Below are positions 43,274 to 53,409 of a stretch of DNA of 64,000 nucleotides, in pieces. The stretch is from an uncultured Nitrospiraceae bacterium (lineage in GTDB: Bacteria; Nitrospirota; Thermodesulfovibrionia; Thermodesulfovibrionales; Dissulfurispiraceae). The stretch lies in assembly GCA_963727805.1 (NCBI GenBank), contig CAVSHF010000003.1, positions 2,208,001 through 2,272,000 of the forward strand, read 5' to 3'. The notes under the pieces are model-generated. The model did no database searches. It saw only the letters and a program-made list of their open reading frames with translations, and was not told where the DNA came from. Positions within the stretch are counted from its first letter, which is position 1; the number at the start of each line of letters is the position of its first letter. The position numbers were made by a program, and so were the translations under genes.

Positions 43274-43561
43274 ATGAGCAAAACAAAGAGGAACCGATAT
43301 TCAGGGGAGTTCAAAGCAAAGGTAGCGCGTGAAGCAATGAGGGAGGGATCGACGATTGTAGAGATCGCATCACGGTACAATATTCACCCCAATCAGGTTA
43401 GCGAGTGGAAGAAGCAGGCTATTGAAGGGCTTGCAGATGTATTTACAGGGAAGCACGGTCGTAACGAAAACGCTCACGAGGCTCAAATCACGGAACTGCA
43501 TGCCAAGATTGGGCAGTTGACAGTGGAGCGGGATTTTTTAGCGAAAGCCTTCAATCGATGA
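43274..43561 (+). CDS. IS3 OrfA (HTH)
   Basis: YSGEFKAKVA, IHPNQVSEWKKQ, LHAKIGQL.VERDFL. Confidence 0.92.
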   Translation: MSKTKRNRYSGEFKAKVAREAMREGSTIVEIASRYNIHPNQVSEWKKQAIEGLADVFTGKHGRNENAHEAQITELHAKIGQLTVERDFLAKAFNR

Positions 43562-44424
43562 GCCGCGATCGAAGGAAAGAGATAATTGAACCGGAACACC
43601 CGAGGCTCAGCATTACGAGACAGTGCAACCTACTTCAAATCAGCCGCTCGTCGTGGTATTACGAAGCAATGGGAGAATCGGCACAGAATCTGGAGTTGAT
43701 GCGCCTAATTGACGAGCAATTTCTGAAGACCCCGGAATATGGAGCCCGTCAGATGGCCCGTTATTTACGGCGGCAGGGATATTGGGTAAACAGGAAGCGG
43801 GTAAGTCGATTGATGCAGAAGATGGGGCTAATGGCGATGTACCAGAAACCCAACACGAGCAAACCGCATCCTGAGCACAAGGTCTATCCCTATCTGCTTA
43901 GAGGCTTGAACATTACGGAGCCAAACCAGGTGTGGTGCGCCGATATCAGCTTCATCCCGATGCGACGGGGATTTCTATATTTGGTGGCGATTATGGACTG
44001 GGCGAGCCGAAAGGTTTTAAGCTGGCGGCTCAGCAACACTATGGAAGCTGCTTTCTGTGTGACAGCCCTCAAAGAGGCCTTGGCCAGATACGGCAAACCA
44101 GGGATCTTCAATACCGATCAAGGCAGCCAGTTCACCAGTATTGAGTTCACACAGACGCTCCTGGATTCCGGTGTAAAGATATCAATGGACGGAAAAGGCC
44201 GCTGGGTGGATAACGTGATGGTTGAACGGCTATGGCGATCACTGAAGTATGATTGCGTTTATAGATACGCATTTGAGACCGGCAATGAAGCAAGAAATGG
44301 CATCGGCGAGTGGATCAAGCAGTATAACGAGGAGCGTCCTCATTCTTCTCTGGACGACAGGACGCCTCATGAAGCATACTGGAATCTGCCAAAGGCAGGT
44401 TGCCCGGGAAAACTGGCGGCATGA
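43558..44424 (+). CDS. IS3 OrfB (DDE integrase core)
   Basis: WCADIS, NTDQGSQF, DNVMVERLWRSLK, YNEERPHSSL. Confidence 0.94.
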   Translation: MSRDRRKEIIEPEHPRLSITRQCNLLQISRSSWYYEAMGESAQNLELMRLIDEQFLKTPEYGARQMARYLRRQGYWVNRKRVSRLMQKMGLMAMYQKPNTSKPHPEHKVYPYLLRGLNITEPNQVWCADISFIPMRRGFLYLVAIMDWASRKVLSWRLSNTMEAAFCVTALKEALARYGKPGIFNTDQGSQFTSIEFTQTLLDSGVKISMDGKGRWVDNVMVERLWRSLKYDCVYRYAFETGNEARNGIGEWIKQYNEERPHSSLDDRTPHEAYWNLPKAGCPGKLAA

Positions 44425-47459: not shown

Positions 47460-47620
47460 TAATATTACCCAGACACCTATGCGGCCGCTCCTTGTTGTAT
47501 TGAAGGCGCCATTTCTCGATTACCTTTGGGGCATGTTCCATGATCATAAATCAGTTCTGATTTAAACACTCATCACGTAATCTGCCGTTGAAGCTCTCCA
47601 TATAAGCATTATCGACCGGG
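47460..47620 (-). pseudogene. IS3-family (IS407-like) transposase C-terminal remnant
   Basis: PVDNAYMESFNGRLRDECLNQN*F...WRLQYNKERPH. Confidence 0.8.
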
Positions 47621-47937
47621 TTGAAGGTGACAGAGCTGAAGCTCGATTCTACGCTCATATACCCAATGACATGGCGAACACTGCGTTTCTCAAAGATGCA
47701 GATCAAGTCGCGTTATAAGGATGCAATCGACAGCACGGTCATGATAGGTTATTTTGGAAGGTAATCACCAAATTCCTAGTACTGGTAAAATCGATGTAGG
47801 AGGTGCAGGCAAGATTTCCAGGAGAAGTGCGTCAGTCTAGACATAATGTATTAAACCTGTCCAACCTTAAAGGACGTGGGTTAAGCTTTAAGGTAACGAA
47901 ACCAAAGGCTCAGAGCCACAATTAAGGAGGACAGGTT

Positions 47938-48095
47938 ATGAAGAATTTTAGCACATTTATCGGCATGGACGTACACATGGAAAAGATAGCAGTAGCAACG
48001 GCAGGGAAGCATGGAGTGCCCCGATACTATGGGGAGATTGCCAATACAGCCGAGGCTATAACGAAGCTGGTAAAAAAGGTAGTGCCATCTGGAAG
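47938..48095 (+). pseudogene. IS110 transposase N-terminal part (disrupted)
   Basis: RBS AAGGAGG; MKNFSTFIGMDVHMEKIAVA...; joins 51613 in frame. Confidence 0.88.
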
Positions 48096-48173
48096 CTAGC
48101 CTGTTCACAAAGGTGTTGACATTTGCTCCGCAAGAACATATATATCCCTTATCAGCAATGATAGGGGATATAT

Positions 48174-49954
48174 ATGTTGGATGAAGACGCATTAGCCGAT
48201 AAGCTTCGTATTCCACTTCCCGTTGGGGATGTGCAGGTCAATTTCTGTAAGAATCCTGCATGCCCTAATTTTGGGATTCCTGCCAGCCAGCGGAAACAAC
48301 CTCGTGGAAGATATTCCGGTGATAAAGAGAGAGACGCCTATGTTATAAGTAGCGGCGATAAGCCGCAAACTGTTCTCCTAAGATGCACCCTATGTGGCGA
48401 ATACCCGACAATTAAAAGCAACCTTGCAATCAGTGAGGAGATTGATCGCCTGTCACAGTACCTCGGACCAGAGAAAGAGATAATCTCATGCCCCAATCTG
48501 GGATGTCCAAACCGCACAGTTCCCCTATCAACGCCGAAAAGCTACGTATCTTTTGGAAAGACTAAATCCGGATCTCAAAGGTATCGCTGTAGGCTATGCG
48601 GAAAGGTATTCTCTGTCGGTACCCCGACGACCCGGCAAAAGAAGCCACATAAGAATGCCATGATATTCAAACTGCTTATGAACAAAGTGCAATCATCCGT
48701 ATTTGCGAGGTGGCCGGGCTCGGATCGATGAATGCGCTTTACTGGAAGATCGATTTCATCAACAAGCAGTGTCTTGCTTTCGCCGCCGCTAAGGAACGTA
48801 AACTGCTTGAGGGCTTCCCTATTAAGAGACTCTATATTGGCACGGACAGGCAGGATTACATGGTCAACTGGTCCGATTCTGCCGATAAGCGTAATGTAAT
48901 GCTCCACGCCGCAGGCAGTGCTGACAATAGTAGCGGATATGTATTTGGTCTGCACCTTAACTTTGACCCCAGTCTTGATCCTTTCTTGATTGTCCAGGAT
49001 GCTGAAGCGTCGGGAGACCTTGAAATGAAGGTCCCTTTCAGAAAGCACGCTCGTGTCTGGCTGCCAAAGGATTACCAAGAATCTGCCAATACAAGCTTAA
49101 GAAGACAAAAGGTAGAGACATACGGCACTCTCCCGGAAGATATTGAACAATCCTATGCCGAGGCCCAGGAGCGGGAAGATATAGAGGTGTTCGAGCAAAA
49201 AGATTATAACACTCGGTTGCCTGCAAAGGGCTTGCAGGTGCATGCCGAATACACTCTTTATGGACACTTCTTCCTTCTCAGGCAGCTCTTTGGCGGGGTT
49301 GAGAAGGTCAGGTTTTTCTTGGATCAGGATTCTGGTATGCGAGCAGCGTGCTTAAGCGCCTTTGTCAACCAGATCAAAGAGAAAAGGTGCGATGCATTTT
49401 ATGTCCGCATTAACAAGAATCTGACTATTGGCGAGAAGCGACAAGCAATGGTTGCCGTCCGCAAAGAATGGGAAGAAACAAAAAAAGAATATCCGGGACT
49501 CGGCGACTCCAAACTTCGACTTCTGATTATTAAGGAACGGATTAGGCAGGCTGTGAATATGGGGAAATGGTCGGACAAGTGGATTCTGCATCCATTCCCG
49601 AATATGAGCGAGCCCGAAAAGGCAGTGTGTTACCTCACCGATATTCAGGGGTATGATGAAGACCACCTTGCCTGGCTCTACAACAAGGCAAGCCTTCATG
49701 CCATAGACCGATTTTTTATGCAGGTTCGCAGGAGATTGTCTTTGTTAGAAAGGCCTATCGCAACGCCGAGCAGTGCCGGGCGGAAGTGGTTCGGCTATAG
49801 CGCTTATAATCCTGCCATTATCATCAAGATTTTAGATATCTTCCGTGTTTTCTACAATTACATAGAGGTCGGGAAGGATGGGTTGACGCCAGCGATGAGG
49901 GTGGGATTGGCAAAGGGCAGAATAGAGATCCAGGACGTTATTCATCATATTTAG
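48174..49954 (+). pseudogene. Putative transposase (Zn ribbons + IS1/IS1595-like core), 1-nt frameshift near 48690
   Basis: CKNPAC, CTLC, CPNLGC, GKTKSGSQRYRCRLC; IGTD, FFLDQD, HAIDRFF..VRRRL, FYNY...TPAMRVGL. Confidence 0.75.
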
Positions 49955-50016
49955 TCATCTGGACTGTATATGCGTCAGGTAATATGTATTACTAGATATT
50001 AAAAAGGAGATTATAT

Positions 50017-50205
50017 ATGCAAGATAAAACGAAAAAAATGTTTGGCATCACCGTATTTCTATTAATTATTGCGGTGGCATGTCTTACGGGTCTTAGCTTA
50101 TTAGGATTTAAAATAGATATTATAGGGTCGGTGATATTGTGCGTGATTTTGATGCCATTGATTCTATATGCTATCTATTTAGATTTAGGGAGGAAGCGTA
50201 AATAA
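50017..50205 (+). CDS. Small two-helix membrane protein (passenger)
   Basis: RBS AAGGAG; two hydrophobic segments. Confidence 0.6.
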   Translation: MQDKTKKMFGITVFLLIIAVACLTGLSLLGFKIDIIGSVILCVILMPLILYAIYLDLGRKRK

Positions 50206-50351
50206 TAAGGGGGGTGTATTATTCGGCTGATTTTGGACAGCCGATCCACAATTGCATTGCACCATAGCGTATGTGTTAGTGGGATTAAGGAGTGCATGCG
50301 CGTCATTAAAGATTATGATAAGATTAAGGTGAAACTACTTGGAGACAAAAC

Positions 50352-50837
50352 ATGAAAGAATCAATATATCTTGAAACCACGATTGTCAGTTATTACACAT
50401 CAAAACCCAGCCGAGACATAATCGTACTCGCACATCAGGAGATAACGCGAGAGTGGTGGGACAAGGCATTGAAGCGATACGAGGTTTTTATTTCTGCCAT
50501 GGTGGTTGAGGAGGCTAGGGCGGGTGATCCTGAAGCTGCGAAAAAGCGATTGGGCATATTAAAGAGATTCCCCTATCTTGATCTGAACCCTTCGGTAGAA
50601 AAGATGGCTCAGGTGTATGTCGAAAAGCTAAAAATCCCCCCTAAGGCTCTCCGTGATGCTGTCCATCTTGCTGTTGCGTCTGTTCATAGGGTCGATTATT
50701 TGCTGACTTGGAATTGTTCTCATATTGCAAACGGAGAAGTTATAAGAAAACTGATGCAGATAAATATGTCATATGGTATTAAGACTCCGATAATATGTAC
50801 TCCGGAAGAATTGATGCCAAGGATAAAAGGAGAATAA
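50352..50837 (+). CDS. PIN-domain (VapC-like) toxin
   Basis: IYLETT, EE, DAVHLA, YLLTWNCSHIAN, ICTPEEL. Confidence 0.85.
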   Translation: MKESIYLETTIVSYYTSKPSRDIIVLAHQEITREWWDKALKRYEVFISAMVVEEARAGDPEAAKKRLGILKRFPYLDLNPSVEKMAQVYVEKLKIPPKALRDAVHLAVASVHRVDYLLTWNCSHIANGEVIRKLMQINMSYGIKTPIICTPEELMPRIKGE

Positions 50838-50841
50838 GATA

Positions 50842-51009
50842 ATGTGGAAAGACCCTATAGTTCAGGAAGTCCGCAAGGCTGGCGAAGAACTTGCGAAGAA
50901 TTCAAACTACAGTCTGCAGGGTCTGTTTAAGATCCTGCGGAATAATGAAAAAAAGAGCAAAGCCAAGGTTCAGACAAGGCTGAGTGGGAATCTTAGAAAA
51001 GCGTGTTAA
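50842..51009 (+). CDS. 55-aa putative antitoxin partner of the PIN protein
   Basis: RBS AAGGAG; MWKDPIVQEVRKAGEELAK...; 4 nt after the PIN stop; below the ORF-track cutoff. Confidence 0.65.
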   Translation: MWKDPIVQEVRKAGEELAKNSNYSLQGLFKILRNNEKKSKAKVQTRLSGNLRKAC

Positions 51010-51115
51010 TTGGGCAGTCGGTTACATTGCCGCACTTGGCAACCTCTCGATGGGATAGATGTCCGCCAGACCGGAACGGGAGGCTGGATTTGCTTAAATC
51101 TCGCTTTTATGTTAT

Positions 51116-51493
51116 CTAAGCACTATGTTTTATACGATACCATGCAAACATACCGGTTCCAATAGGGAGCCCGATTCTCACAATAAGCAAGAATCTGTGC
51201 AGTAGTGAAAAATCAGGCTGATGTTGAGCTATTTCACCAATAACATTCCACAAGCACAGTGACACAATGAATGCTATCGCAGCAAGCACTTCGAATAGGC
51301 CTATTCCCATGTGAACTTTCAGTGCCATGTAAGCTATAACAGATAAAATTAGAATTAGAACAACAGTGCCAGCAATAGTAGATGTGGATACTCCGAGTGC
51401 ATCTGCTAATCGAGATGAAAAGACAAGCAGCAGAATGAATCCTAGTAGAACTATCCCGACACTTATGGCAAAAAAAACATCAGATAATTTCAT
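51116..51493 (-). CDS. Four-helix membrane protein (passenger)
   Basis: RBS GGAGAG; four hydrophobic segments. Confidence 0.65.
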   Translation of the reverse strand: MKLSDVFFAISVGIVLLGFILLLVFSSRLADALGVSTSTIAGTVVLILILSVIAYMALKVHMGIGLFEVLAAIAFIVSLCLWNVIGEIAQHQPDFSLLHRFLLIVRIGLPIGTGMFAWYRIKHSA

Positions 51494-51524
51494 TTAAGCT
51501 CTCCGTAAGATTATTTCAAGAAGT

Positions 51525-51558
51525 AAAGCCTCTAACCTATTACAAGTTAGAGGCTTTT
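51525..51558. terminator. Terminator-like hairpin inside the right TIR end
   Basis: AAAGCCTCTAAC-N9-GTTAGAGGCTTT. Confidence 0.6.
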
Positions 51559-51612
51559 GGAATTTTTACTACCTGCCATCAACACCTTTGTGAACAGGCT
51601 AGCATCTGGAAG

Positions 51613-52582
51613 TCGGGCTGTTTTTTGTTATGAGGCTGGGCCGTGCGGATACGGAGTATATCGGCAAATAACGGACATGGGGCATCGATGCGATGTTATA
51701 GCCCCTTCATTAATACCGAAGAAAGCCGGAGATCGAGTGAAGACAGATCGGCGCGATGCTGTGACACTGGTGCGTTTACTTAGAGCAAATGAACTGACAG
51801 CGGTGTGGGTTCCTGATCAGCAACAAGAGGCGATTAGAGACCTCACACGAATTCGTGAAGATATGAAGAGCATGGAACGGCGTGCCCGGCAACGATTGAA
51901 CGGCTTTTTGTTGCGAAATAAGAGAATCTACTCCGGCGAAAATAAATGGACACAAGCACATTTCCGCTGGCTTGAAAAGATCAGCTTTGAAAGTCCTATC
52001 CAGCAGATCGTCTTTCAAGAGTATATAGATGCAGTTAAACACCTTCAGGGACGCGTGGTATCGCTGGAAGAACAGATGATCAAAGCGCTTGCGGGATGGT
52101 CGTTGGGAGCTGTGGTGGAAGCATTGATGGCATTACGGGGAGTTAAGCTTGTAACGGCGATGCCGATTGTATCAGAGATTGGAGATATAAGCCGTTTTGA
52201 AAGTCCTCGACAATTAATGGCTTATCTTGGATTAGTACCGAGCGAGGATTCAAGCGGTAATCGTCAAAAAAGAGGAGGCATTACCAAAACAGGCAATGGA
52301 CATGTTCGCAGGTTACTTGTAGAGGCTTCTTGGAGCTATCGTTTTGCTGCTAGGAAAACAGCTCATCTTCAACGGAGGGCCGAAAAGGCAAGTGAGGCGG
52401 TACAGGCAATTGCGTGGAAAGTGCAAAAACGTTTGTGCGGCCGATACTGGCATCTGACACAAAAGGGAAAACTAAAGGTGCAGGCATGCACTGCAGTGGC
52501 AAGGGAGTTGGCAGGGTTTATTTGGGCTATTGGTCGCGAGGTTATGGGAAAGAACAATAGTGCTGCGGTGAAAGTTGCATAA
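51613..52582 (+). pseudogene. IS110 transposase C-terminal part (disrupted)
   Basis: CYEAGPCG, KTDRRDA, GLVPSEDSSG, TKTGN, AVAREL. Confidence 0.92.
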
Positions 52583-52689
52583 CATGCAAACATGCACAGT
52601 AGAAGAAAGTTGTTGCCCCTAGTGGCTTCGTAATCATAAATGTGTTCTTCTAAACTTAGACAACTGTGGACATTGATTCGACGGGTGTG

Positions 52690-52870
52690 CATTTTGGCCA
52701 GGATAGCAGCCGGTTGGGAGAACCCTCGGGAAATCTAAGAGGCGCCTTCTTAAAGGCTGACCCTCGACTCTAGACACAGGCAGCTCCACGACGAAGACAA
52801 GTCATGCGGTATCCAACCCGCGCATATCAGAGTGATCTACCGTCGTTTATCGCTGCTGTCCTGACCCAAA
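52690..52870 (+). ncRNA. Putative seek/bridge RNA of the IS1111-group element
   Basis: Contains GGAAATCT (complement of the right flank), TCTAGA (left flank + core) and CATATCAGA (donor end); limits approximate. Confidence 0.65.
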
Positions 52871-53076
52871 TGTATGATCCAAAAAGGAGGTTATAACAAA
52901 AAAACAAAGACGCTGATCATCAGCACTTGACAGGTTTAATACATATCAGATTTCCGGTAGTAATGCCCCATCGGACAGGATTGATCACGAAAATGAACTG
53001 GTACCAAGTAAAAAAAATGGTATACTGTAAAATTCATGGTAGAGAACCTAATAATATCAATGAGGAGGAATGATTC

Positions 53077-53409
53077 ATGGCGTTAATACGCAAGAAACGT
53101 ATCTGGTGGGCACAAGCTGAGGGAGCTGCAGAATATGTGGTTTACTGCAGTAAGGATGCTGCCGATTTAGAATCTCATAATTTCAAGTGGGAGTCGACAC
53201 CCGGCTTAGTGAACAAAGTTGTCCGCGGGAAGACTGAACTGATACTACCGGATGAGTGGAAAGAGTTCCCTTCTGACCCTGGCGAGTATCACCTTGCCAT
53301 TACAGCTCGAGACGAGGCAGGTAACGAAAGTGACCCTTTTTTGTGCCAGGGGTTCTTCAAGTTTACTGCACCACTTGCACCCACAAGGGCAGGGATAGAG
53401 AGTCATTGA
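53077..53409 (+). CDS. Small fibronectin-III-like protein
   Basis: RBS GAGGAGG; W..AEGA..YVVY and YHLAITARDEAGNES motifs. Confidence 0.65.
   Translation: MALIRKKRIWWAQAEGAAEYVVYCSKDAADLESHNFKWESTPGLVNKVVRGKTELILPDEWKEFPSDPGEYHLAITARDEAGNESDPFLCQGFFKFTAPLAPTRAGIESH

Follow-up and report, generated by a model that had tools for sequence, protein, structure and literature searches.

The element and its insertion site

We analyzed a 64-kb window (positions 2,208,001 to 2,272,000 of contig CAVSHF010000003.1, assembly GCA_963727805.1) from the genome of an uncultured Nitrospiraceae bacterium, in which a mobile element with one long gene and four passenger open reading frames (ORFs) interrupts an IS110-family transposase gene. 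Element coordinates are positions in this window, the whole stretch of DNA that was analyzed, and C3 and C5 denote contigs of the same genome. The element is 3,507 bp long (48096-51602), with a GC content of 44% compared to approximately 47.6% for the contig. Its 24-bp terminal inverted repeats (TIRs) are perfect, and a search with the 24-bp end at up to three mismatches found only these two matches in the window, a number reached in none of 100 shuffles. The element is bordered on both sides by the 10-bp direct repeat CATCTGGAAG, and deletion of the element plus one repeat yields a stop-free ORF of 375 amino acids (aa), the 3' part of which matches Transposase_20 and DEDD_Tnp_IS110.

It was found that C5 carries an uninterrupted paralog of this IS110 gene. 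Over 1,640 bases, the paralog and the joined allele disagree at 13 positions, just 5 of which lie away from the ends, and their target sequences show no difference. Because this paralog is nearly identical, and fully so over the target, the insertion point is exact and the event was fairly recent. An earlier note on this DNA, made without database searches, had proposed perfect 24-bp TIRs, an exact insertion into an IS110 gene, and an inner gene of ~593 codons followed by four passenger ORFs; all of these were confirmed, with the C5 paralog serving as the empty-site allele. Its description of a transposon "caught in the act" was overstated, since the inner gene is frameshifted. A further empty-site joint, in short-read contig X1, may be the C5 paralog and was not counted as an excision.

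The features of the locus are collected in Table 1. No Rfam match was found in 47600-53100, and promoter and terminator scans gave 12 and 5 hits, which is the level of shuffled sequence; TTGACA at 48116-48121 was not called a promoter. Perfect 16-bp inverted repeats lie in subterminal position in the host IS110 element (47846-47861 and 52929-52944), which we take to be an IS1111-like trait. Two further copies of this element lie on C5 (99.2% and 83.3% identical), and the target in the 83% copy has shorter versions of both tracts. The surroundings look rich in insertion sequence (IS) remnants, including an ORF 3.5 kb upstream (43558-44424) that we presume from its motifs to be an IS3-like transposase.

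Table 1. Features of the interrupted IS110 gene and the inserted element, in window coordinates.
Feature	Position	Strand	Basis
IS110-family transposase gene, 5' part, ending in the first duplication copy	47938..48095	+	ORF list, joined ORF, intact C5 paralog
A6 tract, target feature, ending 8 bp outside the left duplication	48072..48077	+	sequence; family A-tract peak
Target-site duplication, left copy, 10 bp	48086..48095	+	sequence, repeat search
Left TIR, 24 bp	48096..48119	+	repeat search; family consensus
Left subterminal hairpin, 20-bp arms, over likely ribosome-binding site and transposase start codon	48135..48178	+	repeat search; function inferred
Transposase gene, 593 codons, one-base deletion near 48689/48690	48174..49954	+	relatives' alignment, profiles
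Passenger, 62-aa hydrophobic protein, no family	50017..50205	+	ORF list; Pfam, NCBIfam
Passenger, 161-aa PIN-domain protein, putative VapC-like toxin	50352..50837	+	PF01850, 26.3 bits (cut-off 23.6)
Passenger, 55 aa, probable antitoxin (by position only)	50842..51009	+	ORF list; no Pfam match
Passenger, 125-aa membrane-type protein, no family	51116..51493	-	ORF list; Pfam, NCBIfam
Right subterminal hairpin, 12-bp arms	51525..51557	.	repeat search
Right TIR, 24 bp, identical to left	51579..51602	-	repeat search
Target-site duplication, right copy, 10 bp	51603..51612	+	sequence, repeat search
IS110-family transposase gene, 3' part	51613..52582	+	ORF list, Pfam, joined ORF
T6 tract, starting 8 bp outside the right duplication, mirroring the left A6	51621..51626	+	sequence

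The transposase gene and its protein

The inner gene is 1,781 nt long and, compared with two intact relatives, one base short; the gap falls at a Pro codon that is invariant in 61 of 61 close homologs. A programmed frameshift was rejected on the grounds of this invariant codon and of the relatives, which are single ORFs (570-600 aa in the intact homologs). Because its transposase gene is frameshifted, this copy is probably inactive, and the window element probably represents a recent insertion that is now dead. The missing base may be a sequencing error rather than a real deletion; against this, short-read contig X1 crosses the frameshift without a gap, with only ~30 letters on its short side and possibly coming from the source sample.

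The predicted architecture comprises three Cys clusters, a helix-turn-helix (HTH), a putative D-D-D/N core with two large insertions, and an IS1-like C-terminus; an RNase H fold and a catalytic triad are likewise predicted. Among 139 family sequences, the putative catalytic D224 (LYxxxD) was present in all and D383 (FFLD) in 134; at the third putative position, 123 have Asp and 12 have Asn. E525 (126/139) and E479 (136/139) are also conserved. The motif IDRFFMQxRRR stands where IS1 has VERxNLTMR, and the motif order fits IS1.

We then compared the protein with curated models. The IS1 model NF033558 matched only partially (residues 125-254; E 1e-8 to 1e-10), scoring 32.9-41.7 bits against a cut-off of 100 in four of four intact homologs. 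PF03400 gave no match on either window gene fragment, and no Pfam or NCBIfam model reached its cut-off for the transposase protein. In profile comparisons with an alignment of 120 IS1-type proteins (PF03400-type IS1 transposases), the HTH region matched at 79% probability, or 92% when an alignment of six sequences was used, and the C-terminus matched at 94% (E 1e-7), with reversed-sequence controls below 1%. The family hidden Markov model (HMM) matched 120 of 120 IS1-type proteins, and neither of the two inserts had a profile match to this set. The IS1595 catalytic-domain profile was absent from Pfam and NCBIfam results at E values up to 1, and the zinc-ribbon model NF050000 matched below its cut-off. 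A PDB sequence search returned C2H2 zinc-finger matches only (residues 114-160). The 30 best ESM Atlas clusters share no common Pfam family, and the nearest named ones, DDE_Tnp_IS1 (0.87) and DDE_Tnp_IS240 (0.86), fall below 0.9 and are leads only. It was also noted that a C-terminal RNase_T (DEDDh) exonuclease is fused to the transposase in 7 of 12 long homologs (P0124, P0144, P0150, P0165, P0167, P0189, and P0226).

A widespread family with shared ends

A search with the C-terminal fragment matched 1,937 proteins among 5,241 candidates, and no Pfam domain was found on the 120 closest matches. The profile search returned 2,529 clusters at E 0.001, with 663 clusters (50% identity) at E 1e-30 or better. 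From the best 80 of 182 confirmed genome matches we obtained 79 related loci, the closest named relatives being Nitrospiraceae and Dissulfurispiraceae assemblies, which points to a probable Nitrospirota host. The family is patchy, since only 3 of 301 genomes of the host's phylum hold strong matches.

The TIR pattern was found upstream of 68 of the 79 related loci and at both ends of 52 (pattern-anchored pass), compared to 135 of 2,240 random windows. The same family of TIRs also emerged from an unbiased search for inverted repeats. Six of the 11 loci missing the left TIR have less than 100 nt upstream. The conserved TIR is 23-27 bp long, and the 52 ends are of types CAAG (29), CTAG (12), CGAG (9), and other (2). 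We delimited 55 distinct elements, of which 32 measure 1.9-2.04 kb, 22 measure 2.3-9.6 kb, and one 1.06 kb, the right ends of L006 and L036 being less certain. The 32 short elements have room for the transposase gene only, and most family members are plain insertion sequences without cargo. Among the best 80 of 182 genome matches, the closest relative (L005:8001-9749; 84% identity) no longer has a left end or the first codons of its gene, and L012 carries a shortened TIR variant.

The inner protein is almost certainly a transposase, given that both ends were found at 52 of the 79 related loci and that 32 of the 55 delimited elements are only gene-sized. The related loci bore out the earlier note's view that this type of protein is the transposase of a cargo-carrying element family: they have TIRs and duplications, and their cargo varies. 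That the ORF is itself cargo, moved by some other enzyme, is hardly credible: a same-ended element without a transposase does occur in this genome, as does a shorter Vibrio relative without TIRs elsewhere, but the gene-sized elements and the IS1-type homology of the HTH and C-terminus speak against it, and the protein stays with related TIRs down to 24% identity. The Vibrio relative (489 aa; L161:4989-6458, NZ_CP046163.1) lies behind a purine nucleoside phosphorylase-like gene, and by eye the conserved Asp residues are missing from it. It is possibly a domesticated, mis-annotated derivative. Relatives also occur in Vibrio, Photobacterium, and Salinivibrio, some labelled "lactate dehydrogenase".

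Target-site duplications were assessed at 53 sites (the 52 loci with both ends plus four own-genome elements, minus three with short flanks). With one mismatch allowed, a duplication was present at 35, of 9 bp in 28 and 10 bp in 7. The earlier note had allowed for an IS1595-like 8-bp duplication with a 25-bp TIR. This was rejected, as the intact C5 copy of the element has C and T as neighbouring bases and a 9-bp duplication, which fixes the ends at CTAG; in addition, C is the first base in 98% of the 52 family ends, and a perfect duplication of 8 bp was not seen among the family loci or Tn7491-type insertions inspected. Homologous loci did show TIRs and variable cargo, as the note had proposed to check, with duplications of 9 or 10 bp and never 8. 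Several duplication-free sites (L011, L020, L048, L055, L074, and L080) often show complementary terminator arms on both sides, as from two terminators, and the two flanks of L080 are reverse complements of each other.

Sister elements and cargo

Three further elements with the same ends were found in this genome. The first (C5:1227814-1230445) is the intact copy, with a 599-aa gene and a 9-bp duplication, inside a perfect hairpin between two convergent genes. In the second (C5:1066534-1069040), the gene is truncated and the 10-bp duplication lies in a hairpin; this element carries a RES / Xre-MbcA pair. The third (C3:651719-652777; 1,059 bp) has neither transposase nor duplication and carries a DUF433 / DUF5615 (PIN-like) pair. 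With the window's PIN gene and following 55-aa ORF, cargo of toxin-antitoxin (TA) type is present in three of the four elements. The intact 599-aa copy could move the dead window copy and the two defective TA-carrying elements in trans. The non-autonomous C3 element lies directly behind the apparent start of what we take from its motif to be an IS110-type gene (L001:1100-1432; C3 near 651,300).

Across the family, the extra genes behind the transposase are often restriction-modification or TA genes. Among 17 loci longer than 2.2 kb, nine contained DNA methyltransferase or restriction domains, two contained Gp49-type TA toxins, and six had no Pfam match. In addition, mer genes were present in one of these loci and a nested IS21 in one. 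IS that carry passenger genes have been described as a class (PMC9330008).

Tn7491, the dfrG transposon, as a relative

A tblastn search of plasmids with an intact homolog returned 132 records, including Enterococcus (90) and Staphylococcus (10), and the Enterococcus and Staphylococcus rows listed had 23.7% identity over 96% of the query (E 1e-30). In two opened plasmid records, the match is a 650-aa ORF adjoining dfrG. With the family HMM this ORF reaches 276 bits, and both Asp residues and the C-terminal motifs are conserved in it. The 3.3-kb dfrG unit has been named Tn7491, with a TIR and a 9-bp duplication; it was first seen inside Tn6198, and a second copy lies between convergent genes (PMC10763498). 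The word "transposase" occurs 0 times in the main text of that paper, and passages of PMC8544886 and PMC4432960 call the Tn7491 ORFs hypothetical (both of them in the former). In the open-access literature (Creative Commons PMC and bioRxiv), no paper was found that names the family, its target rule, or Tn7491's transposase class or terminator link.

A TIR scan recovered 12 distinct 3,276-bp Tn7491-type insertions, each with a 9- or 10-bp duplication and none lacking one, and one 3,225-bp Pontibacillus relative. These came from metagenome (47) and viral (4) contig stretches and two plasmids, and the presence of dfrG was checked in the two annotated plasmids only. Tn7491 resembles the window element in its full-length homologous large ORF beside a passenger gene, its related TIR, and its 9-10-bp duplication, and it resembles the family in a left subterminal hairpin at base 59 and in terminator-like targets. 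It differs in its ends, which are TAAG rather than C-N-AG, so that the TIRs are related and not identical, in an Asn at the third putative catalytic position, and in its Firmicute hosts. It also has an extra 98-aa ORF upstream of the large gene, where the window element has 78 bp from end to start codon; the small upstream ORF is present in L084 and L085, and an 80-aa ORF lies at the same place in L087. The Tn7491 protein, a distant relative in the same family, belongs to an evidently mobile element. A Tn7491-type ORF was also encountered in two Staphylococcus prophage records (OP328421.1 and OP328422.1), the only 2 matches among 50,697 phage records.

Target-site preference

We sought to characterize the targets at 46 distinct duplicated sites (33 proteobacterial-type and 13 Tn7491-type), where the duplication is 9 bp in 38 and 10 bp in 8. 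In the 7 bp outside the duplication, own-arm pairing averaged 5.09/7 at the 33 sites compared to 2.91 when arms were cross-paired (0 of 20,000 permutations), and 4.15 compared to 2.99 at the 13 Tn7491-type sites (p 0.00085), with the symmetry around the duplication peaking at offset 0. Stems of at least 6/7 pairs at offsets up to 3 occurred at 17/33 and 6/13 sites, compared to 1.4% and 2.4% of flanking positions; at offsets up to 1, these values were 17/33 and 4/13, compared to 0.45-1.06% of intergenic positions. The family thus prefers terminator-like sites, with 23 of 46 insertions at a stem centre compared to 1-2% of controls. By a crude ORF caller, 12 of the 46 sites lie between convergent genes and 22 within 100 bp of a gene 3' end.

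A second feature was found further out. AAAA runs 13-23 bp outside the ends were present in 47/103 and 39/53 flanks of the two clades, compared to 3.5% and 9.9%, and in both clades the A frequency peaks 17-23 bp outside the element ends. Tracts were kept at stem-less sites (5/16 compared to 7% of controls, and 6/7 compared to 23%), and both tracts and stem therefore seem to count in target choice. The window site reads A6-N8-duplication-N8-T6 with 1/7 inner pairs, and its stem (-2.4 kcal/mol) is far weaker than that at the C5 site (-14.1). These tracts without a stem hint at a direct tract read-out.

An alternative, which we hold to be doubtful, is that targeting depends on structure only: the enzyme would capture an extruded cruciform or hairpin, or alternatively a hairpin that forms in single-stranded DNA at a replication fork or terminating RNA polymerase, and would cut across its tip, the tracts being a by-product of terminator anatomy. 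The symmetry is indeed site-specific (own compared to cross pairing) with no shared consensus, a stem is found at 13 of 17 sites with both tracts compared to 2-6% of both-tract control positions, and L068 has a 22-pair stem with no A4 or T4 run. What tells against structure as the sole signal is the window site, with its exact mirror tracts and almost no DNA stem, together with the tract enrichment that persists at other stem-less sites.

Some alphaproteobacterial copies (L076, L078, L082, and L083) lie in a repeated palindrome resembling repetitive extragenic palindromes (REP), and in one assembly L078 and L082 occupy the same REP-like empty site in opposite orientations. The stems of nine mostly deltaproteobacterial loci (L011, L016, L017, L018, L021, L022, L023, L027, and L074) have in common an outer arm of the AAAGGCA/G...CTGCC/CCGCC type, which suggests either a repeated family of terminators or a sequence preference specific to the clade.

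Subterminal hairpins

Of the 55 elements, 34 have a strong palindrome (score at least 9) immediately internal to the left end, in most cases with its centre at base 57-60, and Tn7491 has one too; 26 of 55 have one immediately internal to the right end. Mid-gene control windows gave 0 of 272. In the window element, the left hairpin covers GGGGA and the start codon. Protection against read-in transcripts is a feature of IS10. The left hairpin probably hides the ribosome-binding site in transcripts reading in through the broken terminator, and such protection may be its role.

Relationship to described insertion sequences

IS1 elements have ends starting with GG, TIRs of ~23 bp, duplications of ~8-9 bp, and replicative (cointegrate) transposition. 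The family resembles IS1 (PF03400, NF033558; single-ORF members) in the order of its zinc ribbon, HTH, acidic core, and C-terminal YN..TPAM, as well as in a duplication of ~9 bp and a TIR of ~23 bp. It differs from IS1 in having a protein of ~590 aa rather than ~300, with two extra N-terminal Cys clusters and two inserts of ~80-120 aa, in Asp or Asn where IS1 has Glu, in ends that are not GG, in the absence of a programmed frameshift, in a strong hairpin preference, and in scores of 33-42 bits against the cut-off of 100. IS1595 elements have an N-terminal zinc ribbon, an 8-bp duplication, and some passenger-carrying members. The family shares with them the zinc ribbon, a single ORF, and passengers in some members, but its duplications are 9-10 bp and the IS1595 catalytic domain is not matched. 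Judged from its sequence, the protein would work like an IS1-type transposase, yet on these comparisons it does not qualify as a member of IS1 or IS1595.

The earlier note had been unable to place the protein in a named IS group. This holds insofar as no curated model reaches its cut-off, while the family already contains a named member in Tn7491. It is unlikely that the family is an already curated group outside the profile libraries used, such as the IS892 group of ISNCY or a long ISMhu11-group IS1 member. The comparison covered Pfam and NCBIfam, with ISfinder and TnCentral outside it, and such an identity would agree with the RefSeq label "insertion element protein" on some Tn7491-type proteins and with the 12 of 52 ends that are CTAG, as in the IS892 group. 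However, most ends are CAAG, the IS892 group as generally described has two short ORFs where the family has one long ORF, and an IS name stands on 0 of 85 plasmid rows listed (40 of 132 and 45 of 134 records, overlapping). Among the papers listed from the open-access literature, none mentions IS892.

With respect to targets, some IS4-group elements prefer terminators. The word "terminator" occurs 0 times in the text of PMC2266710. REP targeting is known for members of IS3, IS4, IS5, IS110, and IS256 (PMC1525189). The family resembles these palindrome-targeting IS in inserting into extragenic palindromes, some copies lying in a REP-like one, but they belong to other transposase families, and what the present family targets is for the most part a set of unrelated terminator-like stems, with A/T tracts, rather than a single repeated sequence.

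Interpretation and significance

Taken as a whole, we consider it likely that the window holds a recently inserted, frameshifted transporter IS of a large unclassified IS1-related family, which prefers terminator-like or tract-flanked targets and whose transposase is predicted to be of RNase H type. In the proposed mechanism, the zinc ribbons and HTH would bind the TIRs, and the RNase H-type transposase would join the element ends to the target strands at positions separated by 9-10 bp. In the target, a symmetric complex would read A/T tracts ~13-18 bp on either side of the centre together with a deformable palindromic core. Intrinsic terminators, bidirectional ones above all, would fit best, keeping most insertions out of genes, and the window site would be a second-choice target, with tracts and no stem, tolerable in a redundant IS110 gene.

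Several observations weigh against this interpretation. The core strands around the first two putative catalytic Asp residues did not match the IS1 set in profile comparisons, which leaves motif order and conservation as the basis for placing the putative core. For the third catalytic residue, E525 and E479 are candidate alternatives, and the Tn7491 protein has Asn at the putative position. Three loci (L005, L009, and L012) miss the TIR pattern despite long upstream DNA and a near-full gene, and the sigma-70 scan found no promoter at the element's left end. No duplication was present at 18 of 53 sites, which is compatible with intramolecular events and also with assembly chimeras. Half of the sites are without a strong stem, and at 11 of the 33 proteobacterial-type sites both tract and stem are absent. 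Approximately a quarter of the sites (11/46 by the crude ORF caller), the window site included, lie inside ORFs, and all sites are survivors, several from related hosts or one genome, with p values that overstate independence.

The last two points would suit an absence of real targeting, in which insertion is near-random and A/T-biased, as in IS1, and terminator sites predominate merely through the purging of other insertions. We regard this as very improbable. Purging cannot centre the duplication on a stem, as the peak at offset 0 would demand, when so few intergenic positions are stem centres, and terminator breakage is not obviously more neutral than other intergenic landings.

Beyond the likely transporter IS described above, we tentatively raise a stronger possibility, to which we give somewhat less than even weight: that this is a distinct IS family of Nitrospirota, Proteobacteria, and Firmicutes, including the dfrG transposon, with a non-canonical D-D-D/N active site, in which the two inserts form a terminator reader of paired A/T tracts and a hairpin or cruciform tip. 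If so, it would be a one-protein safe-site transposon ferrying defence genes, and the window's stem-less site would be a natural control separating the tract and hairpin read-outs.

The window locus contributes an exact empty-site allele, a single genome with four elements of the family, and a tract-only target. The 663 clusters at E 1e-30 or better, with no Pfam domain on the 120 closest matches, represent a large annotation gap. Terminator targeting by a single IS1-like protein could possibly serve as a compact tool for intergenic insertion. The family adds a route by which restriction-modification and TA genes move, and it includes the element spreading dfrG, a common trimethoprim-resistance gene, in staphylococci and enterococci.

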